A DNA stretch of 62,826 nt from NCBI GenBank assembly GCA_964513285.1, contig CAZEML010000003.1, forward strand, positions 1-62,826. Reading direction: 5' to 3'. Origin of the DNA: an uncultured Candidatus Nemicrothrix sp. (GTDB lineage Bacteria > Actinomycetota > Acidimicrobiia > Acidimicrobiales > Aldehydirespiratoraceae). The notes beneath the pieces were generated by a model that was not told the origin of the DNA, made no database searches, and saw nothing but the letters and a program-made list of their open reading frames with translations. A program made the position numbers and the translations under genes. Shown here piece by piece: positions 41,290-42,799 of the stretch (the stretch's first letter is position 1; each line of letters opens with the position of its first letter).

Positions 41290-41373
41290 CGGAAGGGGTA
41301 GGAGTCGAACCCACAAGGCTTGCGCTCGGCCGGTTAGCAACCAGCTGCCGTCACCGAATCGGCTTGCCCTTCC
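41290..41373 (-). tRNA. tRNA-Ser (anticodon GCU), class II
   Basis: Reverse complement: GGAAGGG-CA-AGCC..GGCA-GCTGG-TTGCTAA-CCGGC, long variable arm, GTGGG-TTCGACT-CCTAC, CCCTTCC. C8 instead of U8. No encoded CCA. Confidence 0.85.
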
Positions 41374-41379
41374 GAGGCG

Positions 41380-41452
41380 TACCCGATGCCGGAATCGAAC
41401 CAGCGCACGCCGGGTGTAAACCGGCCGCTCTCACCAACTGAGCTAATCGGGC
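41380..41452 (-). tRNA. tRNA-Val (anticodon UAC)
   Basis: GCCCGAT-TA-GCTC-AGTTGGTGA-GAGC-G-GCCGG-TTTACAC-CCGGC-GTGC-GCTGG-TTCGATT-CCGGC-ATCGGGT. G1-U72 wobble. No CCA. Confidence 0.85.
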
Positions 41453-41471
41453 AAGGGTCTCGCGACCTGCG

Positions 41472-41545
41472 TAGGGAGGGTTGGATTCGAACCAACGACA
41501 GACCCGCTGTATCAGAACGGCGCTCTACCCCTGAGCTACATCCCT
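41472..41545 (-). tRNA. tRNA-Ile (anticodon GAU), slightly non-canonical
   Basis: AGGGATG-TA-GCTC-AGGGGTA-GAGC-G-CCGTT-CTGATAC-AGCGG-(7-nt variable)-GTTGG-TTCGAAT-CCAAC-CCTCCCT. U6-C67 mismatch. No CCA. Confidence 0.7.
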
Positions 41546-41644
41546 CTGTTCTTTGCTGCGAGTTCGCGACCTGCGGTCGCTCATGCGCAGACCCCACGAA
41601 CCGCTCGCCGGCGAAGCCGGACCGAGCTCCCCGCGAGGTACGAG

Positions 41645-41718
41645 CGCCCAGGATGGGATTCGAACCCACACCCTCTTCCGTGACAGGAAAGTGCTCTGAC
41701 CGATTGAGCTACCTGAGC
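41645..41718 (-). tRNA. tRNA-Asp (anticodon GUC)
   Basis: GCTCAGG-TA-GCTC-AATCGGTCA-GAGC-A-CTTTC-CTGTCAC-GGAAG-AGGGT-GTGGG-TTCGAAT-CCCAT-CCTGGGC. No CCA. Confidence 0.85.
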
Positions 41719-41729
41719 GAGACCATGCG

Positions 41730-41800
41730 AACCGGGAGGAGGACTCGAACCCCCATCTGCGGGTTCAGAGCCCGCCGTCGTGCCGTTTGACCATCCCGGT
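41730..41800 (-). tRNA. tRNA-Gln (anticodon CUG)
   Basis: ACCGGGA-TG-GTCA..CGAC-G-GCGGG-CTCTGAA-CCCGC-AGAT-GGGGG-TTCGAGT-CCTCC-TCCCGGT. The weak A1-U72 pair is typical of Gln. No CCA. Confidence 0.8.
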
Positions 41801-41829
41801 GTGGTTTGCGGCGAGCGCCGCAGCGATGG

Positions 41830-41906
41830 GTTGATCGATCGGAATCGAACCGACGAGTCCCAGGGTCACAACCTGGTGCGACAAACCAGCAGTCGCCTCG
41901 ATCAAC
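41830..41906 (-). tRNA. tRNA-His (anticodon GUG) with encoded G-1:C73
   Basis: G(-1)-TTGATCG-AG-GCGA-(11-nt D loop)-TCGC-A-CCAGG-TTGTGAC-CCTGG-GACTC-GTCGG-TTCGATT-CCGAT-CGATCAA-C73. A8 instead of U8. Confidence 0.85.
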
Positions 41907-41907
41907 A

Positions 41908-41983
41908 TGGAGCCCCGGGCGGGAGTCGAACCCGCTGCCTCTCGATTACGAAACGAGCGCACGTCCACACGTGCGTCCGAGGC
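41908..41983 (-). tRNA. tRNA-Thr (anticodon CGU), CCA encoded
   Basis: GCCTCGG-AC-GCAC-GTGTGGAC-GTGC-G-CTCGT-TTCGTAA-TCGAG-AGGCA-GCGGG-TTCGACT-CCCGC-CCGGGGC-T-CCA. A8. U31-U39 mismatch. Confidence 0.8.
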
Positions 41984-41984
41984 G

Positions 41985-42073
41985 TGGCGGAGAGCGTGGG
42001 GGTCGAACCCACAAGGCTTGCGCTCGACCGTTTTCGAAACGGCTGCCGTCGCCAACTGTCGGCTTGGCTCTCC
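41985..42073 (-). tRNA. tRNA-Ser (anticodon CGA), class II, CCA encoded
   Basis: GGAGAGC-CA-AGCC..GGCA-GCCGT-TTCGAAA-ACGGT, long variable arm CGAGCGCAAGCCTTG, GTGGG-TTCGACC-CCCAC-GCTCTCC-G-CCA. C8. Confidence 0.85.
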
Positions 42074-42078
42074 AGGTG

Positions 42079-42153
42079 TGGTGGGGGCACTGGGATTCGA
42101 ACCCAGGCCTCGCGGGGTAAGAGCCCGCAGCTCTTCCACTGAGCTACACCCCC
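42079..42153 (-). tRNA. tRNA-Lys (anticodon CUU), CCA encoded
   Basis: GGGGGTG-TA-GCTC-AGTGGAA-GAGC-T-GCGGG-CTCTTAC-CCCGC-GAGGC-CTGGG-TTCGAAT-CCCAG-TGCCCCC-A-CCA. Confidence 0.85.
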
Positions 42154-42157
42154 GTGT

Positions 42158-42242
42158 TGGTACTCCCCGTGGGATTCGAACCCACACGCCTCGAGGGCGA
42201 CGGGTTCTGAACCCGCTGCGTAAACCGTTCCGCCAGAGGAGC
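42158..42242 (-). tRNA. tRNA-Leu (anticodon CAG), class II, CCA encoded
   Basis: GCTCCTC-TG-GCGGAACGGTTTACGC..GCGGG-TTCAGAA-CCCGT, variable hairpin CGCC-CTCGA-GGCG, GTGGG-TTCGAAT-CCCAC-GGGGAGT-A-CCA. A37 instead of the usual G37. G1-U72. Confidence 0.8.
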
Positions 42243-42272
42243 GAGTCGCCGCACGGAGCGGCGGGTGTTGTG

Positions 42273-42345
42273 TGGTGCAGGACGGGATCGAACCGCCGAC
42301 GCGCTGCGTTTCAGACAGCCGCTCTTCCGACTGAGCTACCGCACC
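42273..42345 (-). tRNA. tRNA-Phe (anticodon GAA)
   Basis: GGTGCGG-TA-GCTC-AGTCGGAA-GAGC-G-GCTGT-CTGAAAC-GCAGC-GCGTC-GGCGG-TTCGATC-CCGTC-CTGCACC-A. No CCA. Confidence 0.85.
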
Positions 42346-42351
42346 GATGAG

Positions 42352-42426
42352 AGCCCCCGGGAGGATTCGAACCTCCGACCTCCTGGGTCGAAACCAGTTG
42401 CTCCTGATCCACTGAGCTACGAGGGC
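42352..42426 (-). tRNA. tRNA-Arg (anticodon UCG)
   Basis: GCCCTCG-TA-GCTC-AGTGGATCAG-GAGC-A-ACTGG-TTTCGAC-CCAGG-AGGTC-GGAGG-TTCGAAT-CCTCC-CGGGGGC-T. No CCA. Confidence 0.8.
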
Positions 42427-42432
42427 GAGACG

Positions 42433-42504
42433 CGCGGTGGCGAGGATTCGAACCCCGACCTTCGGGTTTGGAAGCCGCTGTGCTGCCGTTGACACCACCA
42501 CCAC
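42433..42504 (-). tRNA. tRNA-Trp (anticodon CCA), weak anticodon stem
   Basis: GTGGTGG-TG-GTGT-CAACGGCA-GCAC-A-GCGGC-TTCCAAA-CCCGA-AGGT-CGGGG-TTCGAAT-CCTCG-CCACCGC-G. Only 3 Watson-Crick pairs in the anticodon stem in my fold. No CCA. Confidence 0.6.
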
Positions 42505-42542
42505 GGTGTGATCGCAGACGGCTCCTGCCGTCAGTGACCGCG

Positions 42543-42615
42543 CTGCGAGGGGAGGGCTCGAACCTCCGCCGACGACGGGTAACAACCGTCCGCTCTGCCG
42601 CTGAGCTACCCCGCA
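42543..42615 (-). tRNA. tRNA-Asn (anticodon GUU)
   Basis: TGCGGGG-TA-GCTC-AGCGGCA-GAGC-G-GACGG-TTGTTAC-CCGTC-(6-nt variable)-GGAGG-TTCGAGC-CCTCC-CCTCGCA-G. U1-A72 and G73 as in bacterial Asn. No CCA. Confidence 0.8.
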
Positions 42616-42648
42616 AGGTTCCGCCGCGGCGAGGGCCGCGGGCGGGCG

Positions 42649-42719
42649 TATCCCGTAGGAGAATCGAACTCCTCTTTCCAGGTTGAGGGCCTGGTGTCCT
42701 ACCGATAGACGAACGGGAC
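42649..42719 (-). tRNA. tRNA-Glu (anticodon CUC), C33 in the anticodon loop
   Basis: GTCCCGT-TC-GTCT-ATCGGTA-GGAC-A-CCAGG-CCCTCAA-CCTGG-AAAG-AGGAG-TTCGATT-CTCCT-ACGGGAT-A. Loop position 33 is C, not the near-universal U. No CCA. Confidence 0.7.
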
Positions 42720-42724
42720 AAGAG

Positions 42725-42799
42725 TCAGGGCGGAGGGAATCGAACCCCCGAGATTGCCGGCTTCCAAGGCCGGTGACGAACCTGCACGTCCTCACCCTG
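42725..42799 (-). tRNA. tRNA-Pro (anticodon UGG), A8 and A37
   Basis: CAGGGTG-AG-GACG-TGCAGGTT-CGTC-A-CCGGC-CTTGGAA-GCCGG-(7-nt variable)-GGGGG-TTCGATT-CCCTC-CGCCCTG-A. C1-G72 is typical of Pro. A37 instead of G37. No CCA. Confidence 0.75.

Follow-up and report, generated by a model that had tools for sequence, protein, structure and literature searches.

In Salmonella, the rsr-yrlBA-rtcBA operon is turned on by damaged tRNAs (Hughes et al. 2020, PMC7790460). The Salmonella Typhimurium operon places a Ro60 orthologue beside a Y RNA whose core mimics a tRNA, with a T arm, a closed acceptor stem and a D arm (Chen et al. 2014, PMC4201824; PMC7790460). RtcR and sigma-54 control this operon, which has no tRNA genes. 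Long tRNA arrays of the Anabaena PCC 7120 type are dense same-strand operons that provide roughly a single tRNA for each amino acid, and they are often incomplete (PMC8421152, PMC4758250). These arrays are supernumerary, have a patchy distribution and RNA-processing genes nearby, and a role in translational or tRNA stress has been proposed for them. The Anabaena array is silent until translational stress induces it; it shares its regulation with rtcB, and aminoacylated forms of 23 of its 26 tRNAs were found (PMC8421152). Its regulation is mediated by promoter repeats (Santamaria-Gomez et al. 2021, PMC8421152; Tran et al. 2016, PMC4758250). A link to Rsr or Y RNA is not mentioned for long arrays in either report (PMC8421152, PMC4758250).

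In Actinomycetota, Mycobacterium array units and phage tRNA sets with a proposed anti-defence role are redundant with housekeeping tRNAs and are associated with HNH genes (Morgado & Vicente 2018, PMC5966550; Yano et al. 2026, PMC12803027; PMC10264068). Their D and anticodon arms differ in sequence, and escape from tRNA-targeting nucleases has been proposed for them; phage tRNAs with anticodon-loop changes in particular have been proposed to evade tRNases (van den Berg et al. 2023, PMC10264068). They have a plasmid, phage or prophage-like location, often with GOLLD RNA, and no Rsr or Y RNA link has been reported for them (PMC5966550, PMC12803027, PMC10264068). Streptomyces phage BRock (KX925554) and Arthrobacter phage Atuin (OK040794) carry a Ro-like gene within a large same-strand tRNA array. 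The order in BRock is array, two Y-like modules and Ro, with RNA ligase genes nearby.

We analysed a 62.8-kb stretch of Acidimicrobiia DNA (the window) in which ARAGORN and automated folding placed 16 tRNA genes at 41289-42799, all on the minus strand, with a Y RNA and rsr directly 3' of them on the same strand. Our preferred reading, which we hold at about even confidence, is that the 16 genes make up a polycistronic operon of accessory tRNAs, embedded in a compact RNA-damage response module that is found in Acidimicrobiia and relocates. The array resembles the PCC 7120 type in density, strandedness, incomplete amino acid coverage, patchy occurrence and neighbouring RNA-processing genes, here rtcB at six related loci and, at L023, an HNH endonuclease near the array. 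It differs in its Acidimicrobiia host, in having 16 genes where the definition of a long array requires 20, in an unusually high frequency of deviation at positions 8, 14, 33 and 37, and in the insertion of the cassette between a conserved leader and the Y RNA/rsr pair. A Ro60 orthologue beside a tRNA-mimicking Y RNA, linkage to RtcB (in several relatives) and a probable functional tie to damaged tRNAs are shared with Salmonella, whereas RtcR and sigma-54 control was not seen here. Probable redundancy with housekeeping tRNAs, HNH association, arm differences and a proposed escape from tRNA-targeting nucleases recall the Mycobacterium and phage sets.

In transcription order, the array begins with tRNA-Pro(UGG) (42724..42799), which carries A8, U14, A37, C1-G72 and A73 and does not encode CCA (best Rfam model tRNA-Sec, 33.7 bits). 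tRNA-Glu(CUC) (42648..42719; Rfam tRNA score 53.2 bits) has C33 in the loop CCCUCAA and a G1.U72 pair. tRNA-Asn(GUU) (42542..42615; 53.6 bits) has U1-A72 and G73, and tRNA-Trp(CCA) (42432..42504; 42.1 bits) has three Watson-Crick pairs left in its anticodon stem owing to G27.A43 and C31.C39. tRNA-Arg(UCG) (42351..42426; 60.4 bits), tRNA-Phe(GAA) (42272..42345; 58.7 bits), tRNA-Leu(CAG) (42158..42242; 52.3 bits; A37, G1.U72, CCA encoded) and tRNA-Lys(CUU) (42079..42153; 64.8 bits; CCA encoded) follow. The second half opens with tRNA-Ser(CGA) (41985..42073; best model tRNA-Sec, 29.3 bits), which has C8, a 3-nt connector CAA and an encoded CCA. CCA is also encoded in tRNA-Thr(CGU) (41908..41983; 40.2 bits), which has U31.U39, and in tRNA-His(GUG) (41827..41906), which has A8 and G-1:C73. 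ARAGORN placed Thr in a register with a 1-nt connector; the better register gives A8-C9, a GCAC/GUGC D stem and G14. The array ends with tRNA-Gln(CUG) (41729..41800; 58.9 bits; weak A1-U72 pair), tRNA-Asp(GUC) (41644..41718; 68.1 bits), tRNA-Ile(GAU) (41471..41545; 55.1 bits), whose U6.C67 mismatch was also flagged in the Rfam alignment, tRNA-Val(UAC) (41379..41452; 64.4 bits; G1.U72) and tRNA-Ser(GCU) (41289..41373; Rfam tRNA 30.8 bits), again with C8 immediately after the acceptor stem and the extra connector base of CAA.

The preliminary description had listed these deviations, the weakened stems and the retained identity elements of His, Pro, Asn and Gln. Parsed folds reproduced all of them, and automated folding did not restore canonical U8, U33 or G37; the U14 of Pro is the first base of the D loop. 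Twelve of the 16 genes exceeded the Rfam tRNA gathering score, and tRNA-Sec was the best model for Pro, His and both Ser at only 29-35 bits. E. coli tRNAs scored 58-79 bits, and these scores indicate that the array tRNAs are divergent. ARAGORN also called a 17th gene, a tRNA-Cys(GCA) at 40861-40934, which we rejected because it is the tRNA-like core of the Y RNA; Cys is thus truly absent from the array. Spacers are 1-37 nt with a single exception of 98 nt, so short that separate promoters are implausible.

We assessed the decoding capacity of the set. Ala, Gly, Cys, Met and Tyr are missing, as first reported, and their codons, 26% of the total, cannot be decoded by the array. Under conservative wobble the array reads only 48% of sense codons. 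The proposed match between C34-biased anticodons and codon usage held in two-codon boxes and failed in four-codon boxes, where the reader serves the second-ranked NNG codon and not the dominant NNC. A set that omits five amino acids and the most-used codons of four-fold boxes cannot sustain translation alone. This partial decoding, the 0 to 21 tRNAs found at the equivalent locus in close relatives and the relocation of the module support the accessory status first proposed.

We then compared 151 distinct tRNAs from the arrays of related Acidimicrobiia loci. Position 8 was not U in 42 of 151 (28%), position 33 was not U in 33 of 151 (22%), and A37 was present in 25 of 29 tRNAs of the TrmD class (Pro, Leu(NAG) and Arg(CCG)). 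The corresponding pooled control counts were 3/70, 0/70 and 0/9; the comparators, run through the same pipeline, were E. coli tRNAs and Ro-flanking actinophage arrays. E. coli gave 0/18 for both non-U8 and non-U33 and had G37 in Arg(CCG), Leu(CAG), Leu(UAG) and Pro(UGG), which argues that the array deviations are not due to chance. In BRock and Atuin, all 52 tRNAs had U33, 49 of the 52 had U8, and Pro and Leu carried G37. The recurrent loss of U8/A14, U33 and G37 is strong and sets these arrays apart from E. coli and from Ro-linked actinophage arrays. The phage analogy implied earlier needs some qualification: it does not extend to the actinophage arrays beside Ro genes at positions 8, 33 and 37, but phage T5 showed the same kinds of change at 8, 14 and 37: A8:U14 in Thr and Ser(UGA), C8:G14 in Ser(GGA) and A37 in Leu(UAG). 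None of T5, BRock and Atuin showed U33 loss at the 22% scale. The canonical anticodon U-turn requires U33.

Individual deviations recurred between loci. Leu(NAG) had A37 in 14 of 14 distinct tRNAs, and the A8, U14 and A37 of Pro were retained in the L005 and L023 orthologues despite a wholly rewritten acceptor stem. All five His genes of related arrays had A8, with D-stem covariation. No U occurred at position 8 of the Thr(CGU) and Thr(UGU) genes with an assignable register, which had A or C there. C33 of Glu was also present in L025, L017, L019 and L020, and the Ser CAA connector in L007 and L008. The L018 Trp gene had stems identical to those of the window copy and differed in the T loop alone. 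Stems were 95-99.5% paired within molecules compared to 67-79% when strands came from different members of the same isotype, although ARAGORN outputs foldable sequences only, which inflates these pairing statistics. T-loop TTC (91%), A58 (98%) and G18G19 were kept, position 37 was a purine in 100%, and Ala tRNAs preserved G3.U70. Maintenance of the cloverleaf and identity elements through compensatory change suggests that the array tRNAs are under selection.

The Y RNA (157 nt, 40788..40944, minus strand; GUAGCUCAGUUGGUAGAGC) matched Rfam YrlA partially (39.3 bits, E 2e-7), short of the 69-bit gathering score and in this respect unlike the Salmonella YrlA class. It comprises a 16-17-bp basal stem, an anticodon-stem-like hairpin, a T arm, a closed acceptor-like hairpin and a D arm. 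Basal stems covaried across 16 loci, and the RNAalifold consensus of 11 sequences contained 32 pairs, 18 of them with compensatory changes. The adjoining rsr gene (39065..40612, minus strand) encodes a 515-aa Ro60 orthologue with TROVE (PF05731, E 3e-15) and Ro60 vWA (PF25045, E 4e-8) domains. We found 1762 homologues at E<=1e-20, and the nearest carried Acidimicrobiales or Acidimicrobiia labels. The Ro proteins of BRock and Atuin were only 35-37% identical to it.

The module spans ~4.1 kb and consists of a small ORF, a terminator-like hairpin, a leader, the tRNA cassette, the Y RNA and rsr. It recurs at the majority of related Acidimicrobiia loci. A same-strand array of at least three tRNAs lay upstream of rsr in 14 of 18 related Acidimicrobiia loci. 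Cassettes between the fixed leader and the Y RNA ranged from 0 to 21 tRNAs, for example none in L006, one each in L025 and L009, three in L012, ten in L018 and 16 in the window; L024 also belongs to the loci with 0-1. Similarity between loci was confined to the module, with differing flanks, which suggests a unit that relocates between genomic settings. RtcB was encoded inside the array in L017, L019 and L020, directly after rsr in L016 and L009, and after rsr and a GNAT gene in L023. Several results count against the preferred reading: the set cannot support translation by itself, RtcB is absent from the whole 62.8-kb window, an RtcR-type regulator was not seen in the annotated +/-10 kb, and a contig with the leader and five tRNAs (L039) lacks rsr in the following 790 nt.

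Upstream of the array lies a near-invariant leader block (42856..42948, minus strand; core ATGCCGGTTCAGGAACMGACC) that is conserved in eight loci and has the nested palindromes GCCGG..CCGGC and GGAAC-N13-GTTCC. At the loci inspected, ~4-110 nt separate it from the first tRNA downstream, or from the Y RNA if the cassette is empty. It presumably serves the tRNA-Y RNA-rsr unit as promoter/operator or as 5' leader. It had no Rfam match, almost no covariation and a fold z-score of -1.46, and no promoter or terminator was confidently identified at the module; the missing covariation and the lack of a confident promoter or terminator also weigh against the preferred reading. A covarying hairpin followed by a U-rich run (42962..43009, minus strand) resembles an intrinsic terminator; its stems vary between related loci (CCGCUC/GAGCUGG, CCUCUC/GAGAGAG, CCUCCC/GGGAAGG), and it was also present in the minimum-free-energy fold. 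At the upstream edge, a 42-aa ORF (43034..43162, minus strand; MQTRCSEQLN...PASEVTIF, then stop) without an NCBIfam match encodes a peptide conserved in L018, L005, L012, L025 and L006. Neither the leader nor the small ORF was found in IMG/VR contigs.

The recurring module points to a tRNA backup or repair kit for times of stress. The geometry of the locus suggests that array, Y RNA and rsr are co-transcribed; one transcript would be driven from the leader, and RNase P and 3'-end processing would free the tRNAs and the tRNA-like Y RNA. When tRNA-cleaving toxins, translation inhibitors, or oxidative or UV damage harm or deplete tRNAs, the array could supply a replacement chargeable set. Meanwhile Rsr and Y RNA (and PNPase) would clear damaged RNAs, and RtcB, where present, would reseal cleaved ones. 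We infer that the altered tRNAs would be independent of TrmD and of s4U8 modification, as A37 cannot give m1G37 and non-U8 cannot give s4U8. The changes probably also weaken them as substrates of enzymes that read the anticodon loop or tRNA core. The possible nuclease resistance suggested in the preliminary description becomes more plausible through a context absent from that description: the Y RNA and rsr/Ro60 joined to the array, and RtcB in relatives, are parts of a known tRNA-damage repair operon. Part of the deviation may merely be tolerated because the set is rarely used.

We consider a competing explanation unlikely though still of some weight: an actinophage-type tRNA-Y RNA-Ro module was acquired horizontally, its rarely used tRNAs drifted neutrally, and the position of the array beside rsr is a legacy of common descent and shared processing, with no dedicated role in tRNA rescue or nuclease evasion. 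The BRock and Atuin arrays, with the Y-like modules of BRock just upstream of Ro, fit this origin, although phage DNA similarity was limited to single tRNAs, no phage gene occurred within +/-10 kb, and the leader was not found in IMG/VR. Phage arrays of like architecture are canonical at 8, 33 and 37, so the deviations were not simply inherited. Drift would accommodate the varying genomic context, the wide variation in array size and content among close relatives, and apparent losses (Met between Asp and Ile in the window; reduced arrays in L005, L012 and L025). Close relatives also disagree in state: at position 33 of Glu the window carries C and L018 carries U, and at position 8 of Thr the window carries A and L018 carries C. 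Such flips are expected from relaxed constraint and count against the preferred reading. U-to-C changes at 8 and 33 are consistent with GC-biased drift, but in this 68% GC genome G-to-A at 37 and U8/A14 to A8/U14 swaps oppose, or are neutral to, the expected drift. The A8:U14 double swaps and the near-fixed A37 of Leu and Arg(CCG) are stable over deep divergence, and the compensatory maintenance of stems, T loops, G18G19 and identity elements also argues against decay.

Improbable in our assessment is that the products are mainly tRNA-shaped ligands, either decoys or sponges for tRNA-targeting toxins, or RNAs that serve the Rsr-Y RNA(-PNPase) and RtcB machinery as substrates or regulators, for which loss of U33 or U8 would matter little. 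Physical coupling to a tRNA-mimicking Y RNA and Rsr, the frequency of U33 loss, the incompleteness of the set and the sponge role proposed for Anabaena operonic tRNAs (PMC8421152) would suit such ligands. Against this, charging identity elements are retained (His G-1:C73, Pro C1-G72/A73, G3.U70 in Ala of relatives, discriminator bases), the anticodons are sensible, at about one tRNA for each amino acid, and position 37 is always a purine, all of which suggests selection for charging and decoding; most Anabaena array tRNAs are moreover charged in vivo (PMC8421152).

That Acidimicrobiia tRNAs generally, housekeeping ones included, share the odd bases, the array being an ordinary and perhaps major tRNA operon, is very improbable: deviations did occur in every related array examined, but most array tRNAs are canonical (U8 72%, U33 78%), TrmD and G37 in Pro, Leu and Arg(CCG) tRNAs are near-universal among bacteria, relatives with 0-1 tRNA at the locus do without the array, and a set lacking five amino acids and readers of the dominant codons implies other tRNA genes.

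We also observed a degenerate or paralogous Y-RNA-like copy at 41061..41245 (minus strand). The segment is missing in L018, and its fold was no better than that of shuffled sequences (z -0.73). Both basal-stem strands are present and the tRNA-like core is gone; its local alignment to the Y RNA scored 67, compared to 34.9 +/- 6.1 (maximum 53) for shuffles.

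The window has 17 tRNA-like genes by ARAGORN, every one on the minus strand: 16 at 41289-42799 and a weak 'tRNA-Cys' at 40861-40934. All 16 genes of the array folded into a cloverleaf (7-bp acceptor stem, 3-4-bp D stem, 5-bp anticodon stem, 7-nt loop and 5-bp T stem), with isolated stem mismatches in tRNA-Ile, Trp, Thr and Arg. The D-loop G18G19 and a UUCRANY T loop with A58 were present in 16/16, and CCA was encoded by five genes. With 16 genes in 1.51 kb of one strand (minus), the array reaches 10.6 genes per kb, above the 2 or more tRNA genes per kb on a single strand required of tRNA array units and L-arrays. 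It falls short of the at least 20 tRNA genes in the L-array definition (Tran et al. 2016, PMC4758250), which three related Acidimicrobiia loci reach (L011, L017 and L019, 20-21 genes).

The preliminary description, drawn from hand folds, had reported departures from near-universal tRNA positions. We parsed the ARAGORN bracket output into canonical tRNA segments and read it position by position, and the same departures were recovered. U8 was absent from 5/16 tRNAs: A8 was found in tRNA-His, Thr and Pro (the D loop of Pro begins with U), and C8 in both tRNA-Ser (C after the acceptor stem, with a 3-base connector CAA). tRNA-Glu had C33 (loop CCCUCAA), Pro(UGG) and Leu(CAG) had A37, and the anticodon stem of tRNA-Trp, described as having only 3 Watson-Crick pairs, contained two non-Watson-Crick pairs. 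G1.U72 in Val, Leu and Glu and U6.C67 in Ile were also reproduced, as were the identity elements said to be kept (G-1:C73 in His, C1-G72 in Pro, U1-A72/G73 in Asn and A1-U72 in Gln). Their retention is indirect evidence that these tRNAs may be aminoacylated and used in translation. Because the identical pipeline returned canonical E. coli K-12 tRNAs, the deviations are real features of the genes and not an error of hand register. One fold was adjusted: tRNA-Thr is better drawn as A8-C9 with the D stem GCAC/GUGC and G14.

The divergence of the window set was seen independently by Rfam. The gathering threshold of the tRNA model RF00005 (29 bits) was reached by 13/16 window tRNAs, 12 in the standard run and Thr (40.2 bits) with relaxed filters only. 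The best model for Pro, His and both Ser was tRNA-Sec, at 29-35 bits, or 29-34 bits for Pro, His and Ser(CGA) alone. Control tRNAs from E. coli scored 58-79 bits with the same tool.

We observed that the array can read only 48% of the sense codons in the window's genes, and that codons of the five missing amino acids make up 26% of the total. Cys belongs among the missing, as had been proposed, because the ARAGORN 'tRNA-Cys' is the core of a Y RNA and not a tRNA. The C34 bias had been matched to high-GC codon usage. This was correct for two-codon boxes but not for four-codon boxes, where the dominant codons of the window genes end in C (CTC 0.58, ACC 0.66, GTC 0.65, CGC 0.44); for Leu, Thr, Val and Arg, the array holds the reader of the second-ranked, G-ending codon. 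The incompleteness of the set, together with relatives that have 0-1 tRNA at the locus, is indirect evidence that the array may duplicate dispersed housekeeping tRNA genes. We are highly confident that the tRNA set is accessory and that the module has the anatomy described here.

The content of the cassette varies among relatives. The 98-nt gap between tRNA-Asp and tRNA-Ile (41546-41643, minus strand), which holds tRNA-Met in loci L007, L008 and L023, contained no recognisable tRNA remnant in the window. In L018, the closest relative, the Asp orthologue (5402-5493) keeps its acceptor and D arms, has an altered and enlarged anticodon/variable region and is called 'Leu(GAG)'. Both are signs of ongoing cassette remodelling.

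We then read the unusual positions in 159 array tRNAs, of which 151 are distinct, drawn from 15 related loci as well as the window. Position 8 was not U in 30% of the 159 (A 27, C 10, G 10), or in 42/151 distinct tRNAs; position 14 was not A in 30%, and position 33 was not U in 21% (C 32, G 2). Position 37 was a purine in 159/159, and A37 occurred in 25/29 distinct TrmD-class tRNAs (Pro, Leu-NAG and Arg-CCG). Other landmarks were retained (T loop TTC 91%, A58 98%, D-loop GG 97%). In the E. coli K-12 control, U8, A14, U33 and the TTC T loop were present in 18/18 distinct tRNAs (non-U8 0/18, non-U33 0/18), and G37 in 4/4 TrmD-class tRNAs, namely Arg(CCG), Leu(CAG), Leu(UAG) and Pro(UGG). Streptomyces phage BRock (non-U8 1/29, non-U33 0/29) and Arthrobacter phage Atuin (non-U8 2/23, non-U33 0/23) both had G37 in Pro and Leu. 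The arrays differed from pooled E. coli, BRock and Atuin at position 8 (P = 2e-5), position 33 (P = 1e-6) and G37 (P = 4e-6, all Fisher tests), values that are indicative only, as the sequences are related. Phage T5 (L035, 28038-40847) had non-U8 in 4/23, with A8:U14 seen in Thr and Ser(UGA) and C8:G14 in Ser(GGA); non-U33 occurred in 1/23 (a doubtful call), and position 37 was A in Leu(UAG) and G in Pro(UGG). Core-position swaps of this kind are thus not unique to Acidimicrobiia.

Neutral drift of a phage-derived, rarely used array could produce such a set, and the U-to-C changes at positions 8 and 33 are compatible with GC-biased drift. The G-to-A change at 37 and the double A8:U14 swaps, of which we counted 10 clean cases (Pro, Phe and Thr among them), are not what GC-biased drift would give in a 68% GC genome. 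We regard drift as unlikely, though the most probable of the rival readings. The stems point to inheritance under constraint: the window, L005 and L023 all have a Pro(UGG) with A8, U14 and A37 despite a fully rewritten, compensated acceptor stem, and tRNA-His had A8 in 5/5 genes with a covarying D stem. Intramolecular pairing was 95-99.5% per stem, compared to 67-79% when the 5' strand was set against a 3' strand taken from a different tRNA of its isotype, and every isotype with at least 4 members showed double changes at 6-16 of 20 stem positions, statistics that carry the caveat that ARAGORN reports only sequences that fold. These data suggest that loss of U8, A14, U33 and G37 is a property of these arrays, stably inherited while the stems change.

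It is quite improbable that the array products, encoded beside rsr and retaining identity elements such as G3.U70 in the tRNA-Ala of relatives, are tRNA-shaped decoys or Rsr ligands and not decoders. Very improbable is a lineage-wide trait as the source of the odd positions, which recur from one related array to the next; no other tRNA gene lies in the window outside the array (ARAGORN, 62.8 kb).

We also considered whether U8 loss avoids the UV-induced s4U8-C13 photo-crosslink. We dropped this idea because C13 is retained (D stem GCUC) by most array tRNAs that have U8, and avoidance of the crosslink is therefore not systematic. In a second array clade (L011, L017, L019 and L020), Lys had A8, Ile had G8 and C33 occurred in at least 10 isotypes. 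Several T loops of this clade (Asp, Thr(GGU), Cys) read UGCGA/UGCAA or UGAGA and not UUCGA, so that position 55 is not U.

Directly downstream of the array and the Y RNA, the ORF at 39065-40612 (minus strand, 515 aa) carries the Pfam TROVE and vWA_Ro60 domains and is an Rsr/Ro60 orthologue; we found no NCBIfam match for it. The Rfam YrlA model (RF02553) matched 40828-40893 at 39.3 bits (E = 2e-7, model positions 24-84 of 114), under its gathering score of 69 bits. The aligned core consists of a T arm, a closed acceptor-like hairpin, UA and a D arm (GCUCAGUUGGUAGAGC), and is closed by a perfect 16-17-bp stem into a 157-nt RNA (40788-40944, minus strand) that ends 175 nt 5' of the rsr start. It thus lies <4 kb from rsr and has the T arm, closed acceptor-like stem, D arm and long basal stem listed by Chen et al. 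2014. The tRNA-like core was located upstream of rsr in 16 loci, with a long insertion in that of L023, and was not detected in L009 or L020. Around the same core, 16 loci had equivalent basal stems that were divergent in sequence and covarying, and the RNAalifold consensus of 11 Y RNAs contained 32 pairs with compensatory changes in 18. These results identify 40788-40944 as a genuine, though divergent, YrlA-class Y RNA. The 'tRNA-Cys(GCA)' at 40861-40934 (minus strand) is a false call, in which ARAGORN read the tRNA-like core in the wrong frame. The same core was miscalled in relatives, as 'Lys' in L012, 'SeC' in L013, 'Cys' in L018 and 'Ser' in L024.

Two further elements flank the Y RNA. 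Within the 354 nt that separate tRNA-Ser(GCU) from the Y RNA lies a second Y RNA-like copy (41061-41245, minus strand), which retains both strands of the basal stem (CCGGCCCG...CUGGUUCUCGGGCCGG) and has lost the tRNA-like core. Its similarity to the Y RNA is significant, its fold is no better than that of shuffles, and it is missing from L018; it is possibly a decayed Y RNA paralogue. On the other side, between the Y RNA and the rsr start (40613-40787), we observed a T-loop-like motif, CGGUUCGAUUCCG, at about 40725-40745 (minus strand), which may be a tRNA-like remnant or a second small RNA. In L011, ARAGORN placed a doubtful 'tRNA-Gln(UUG)' at the equivalent place.

Upstream of tRNA-Pro, 475 nt are kept in 8 loci. 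The upstream edge of the module is a 42-aa ORF (MQTRCSEQLN...PASEVTIF) at 43034-43162 (minus strand), conserved at the peptide level and with no NCBIfam match; its stop codon lies within the loop of a small conserved hairpin. It is followed by a hairpin with a covarying stem and a U-rich run that resembles a terminator (about 42962-43009, minus strand). ORF and hairpin may represent either a leader-peptide attenuator or a small gene of their own. The near-invariant leader block of ~93 nt follows at 42856-42948 (minus strand, core ATGCCGGTTCAGGAACMGACC, 8 loci), and contains the nested palindromes GCCGG..CCGGC and GGAAC-N13-GTTCC. It lies 4-110 nt upstream of the first tRNA, and 67 nt upstream of the Y RNA in L006, a locus without tRNAs. 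We rejected the leader as a known or structured RNA: it had no Rfam match, its RNAalifold consensus had 19 pairs with any compensatory change in just 3, and its single-sequence fold was unremarkable (z = -1.46). It is as likely to be a promoter/operator acting as DNA as a sequence-specific RNA element. Across 38900-43400, we did not observe a sigma-70-like promoter, and terminator-like sites were no more numerous than in shuffles.

Searching metagenomes for the leader core gave 2 matches. One was contig L039, which carries the leader and 5 tRNAs and has no rsr in its remaining 790 nt; the other, on an unrelated contig, fell by chance within an 832-aa ORF. The tRNA cassette behaves like an insert that can expand, with a fixed leader on one side and the Y RNA/rsr pair on the other. 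Because of this placement, and because the spacers between tRNAs are very short, we infer a single transcription unit.

To place the module in its lineage, we scanned for rsr in one genome per species and recovered 16 loci with Rsr 52-90% identical, plus 3 loci through close homologues. The 16 scan loci came nearly all from metagenome-assembled genomes labelled Acidimicrobiales, Iamiaceae, Acidimicrobiia or Actinomycetota, and an identical Rsr protein was found on ENA metagenome contigs with the gene order of the window. Most related loci had a same-strand tRNA array immediately upstream of rsr, with 21 tRNAs in L011 and L017, 20 in L019, 17 in L016, 13 in L023, 11 in L020, 10 in L018, 7 in L013 and L008, 5 in L007, 3 in L005, L012 and L014, 1 in L009 and L025 and 0 in L006 and L024. 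Typical tRNA gene density is ~1 per 100 kb, so the adjacency of array and rsr is not coincidence.

By tblastx, only ~43116-39065 was common to the window and L005, L006, L009, L012, L023 and L025, and the flanking DAO gene was kept in L018 alone. Since only the module is shared and the flanks differ, it moves or rearranges as a unit. Around it in the window lie ordinary chromosomal genes (two-component systems, ABC transporters, CoA-transferase, PhyH, DAO), with no integrase or phage gene within +/-10 kb.

RtcB (Pfam PF01139, E = 1e-110 or better) was present in 6 related loci: within the tRNA array in L017 (3388-4548), L019 (3274-4434) and L020 (4047-5207), directly 3' of rsr in L016 (7664-8836) and L009 (7726-8928), and after rsr and a GNAT acetyltransferase gene in L023 (12372-13583). 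L023 also has an HNH endonuclease gene upstream of rsr. The window has neither, with RtcB absent by tblastn over all 62.8 kb. The patchy, mobile tRNA array units known from elsewhere have HNH and RNA-repair neighbours, a likeness shared by the related loci (HNH in L023, RtcB in 6).

The arrangement of tRNA array, Y RNA and Ro gene is already present in deposited phage genomes, and our literature search found no paper commenting on it there. In BRock (L036, 5088-16849), a Ro gene lies inside a large same-strand tRNA array with RNA ligase genes near, and two YrlA-like cores (8479-8519 and 8832-8872) separate array and Ro gene. Atuin (L037, 8477-14160) has 3 tRNAs upstream and ~22 downstream of its Ro gene, and one or two precede the Ro gene in Gordonia phage VanLee and Streptomyces phage Kradal. 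The chromosomal version in Acidimicrobiia is set apart from these by a small ORF and conserved leader of its own, by tRNAs that are non-canonical and by lying in a non-phage setting. Window Rsr shares 35-37% identity with actinophage 'Ro-like RNA binding proteins'. We rejected a direct phage origin, as blastn of the array against 50,697 phage records returned single-tRNA matches only (72-74% identity). IMG/VR contigs with Rsr relatives (53% identity) had no tRNAs, and the leader motif was not found in IMG/VR. With chromosomal neighbours and single-tRNA similarity to phages, the array does not appear to be encoded by a phage or prophage.

We propose that the array is an accessory tRNA operon integrated into an Rsr/Y RNA module for RNA damage. 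The conserved leader would drive expression of the operon, and the array would supply replacement tRNAs that can be charged, do not depend on TrmD or s4U8 and are probably poor tRNase substrates. Meanwhile, Rsr and the Y RNA would clear damaged RNAs, which RtcB, in relatives, would repair. Our confidence in this mechanism as a whole, with replacement tRNAs as its product, is evenly balanced with our doubt. Its elements have precedents. A long tRNA array of Anabaena, co-regulated with rtcB, remains silent as long as translation is unimpaired; it improves survival, and 23/26 of its tRNAs are charged (PMC8421152). Phage tRNAs with anticodon-loop changes have been proposed to evade VapC, PrrC and colicin-type tRNases (PMC10264068), and mycobacterial tRNA arrays have been described as putative anti-defence systems (PMC12803027).

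A broader reading, which we put forward tentatively and consider doubtful, is a mobile 'tRNA rescue island' of Acidimicrobiia. Here, an expandable cassette of chargeable tRNAs would have been selected to lose the enzyme handles U8/A14, U33 and G37, and would be co-transcribed from a stress-controlled leader with the Y RNA, Rsr and often RtcB. If so, a single response to translation poisons or tRNase toxins would let the cell replace, repair and clear tRNAs, tRNAs would be natural substrates of bacterial Ro60, and these lineages would be a natural experiment on the dispensability of U8, U33 and m1G37.

To our knowledge, the in vivo targets of bacterial Ro60 and Y RNAs are still not settled, and the best lead so far is a Salmonella operon switched on by damaged tRNAs. 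This rsr-yrlBA-rtcBA operon is induced by tRNA fragments (PMC7790460). It differs from the module of the window in having RtcB/RtcA and an RtcR/sigma-54 regulator; the window lacks RtcB, and we found no sigma-54 activator domain among its annotated neighbours. Joining tRNA genes in one unit with a Y RNA and Rsr (and RtcB in relatives), class-wide in Actinomycetota, would tie Ro60 to tRNA supply and offers a testable system for Ro60 biology. The 151 distinct genes, which keep the cloverleaf and identity elements and yet often drop U8, U33 and G37, are a large natural sample. They bear on how essential 'universal' positions and modifications are (s4U8, and m1G37 made by TrmD, an antibiotic target), and on whether accessory tRNA sets act as immunity against tRNA-cleaving toxins.

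Divergent accessory tRNAs, tRNA arrays with their HNH/RtcB neighbourhoods and Y RNAs adjacent to rsr were all known individually, and our literature search found no paper linking tRNA arrays to Rsr, Ro60 or Y RNA. Three aspects appear to be new: in Acidimicrobiia these parts are fused in a single conserved module that relocates; the cassette that separates the fixed leader from the Y RNA varies in size; and U8, U33 and G37 are lost on this scale from tRNAs that still preserve the cloverleaf and identity elements. YrlA-like RNAs adjoin Ro60 genes in >250 species, in a survey that discarded matches overlapping annotated tandem tRNA genes (Chen et al., PMC4201824); such a filter would tend to hide arrangements like that of the window.

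In L025, the sole tRNA between leader and Y RNA (9388-9459) is a Glu(CUC) with C33, and rsr is followed by an HTH gene and a HipA_C kinase (11692-13267), a HipBA-like pair. The target of HipA in E. coli is glutamyl-tRNA synthetase, and the proximity may be coincidence.

For annotation, the lesson is that Y RNAs are miscalled as tRNAs, that surveys have dropped tandem-tRNA overlaps, and that C33 misleads ARAGORN anticodons. The shift of register caused by C33 gives a wrong anticodon, as at 5302 in L017, where an Ala(UGC) was called 'Cys(GCA)'.
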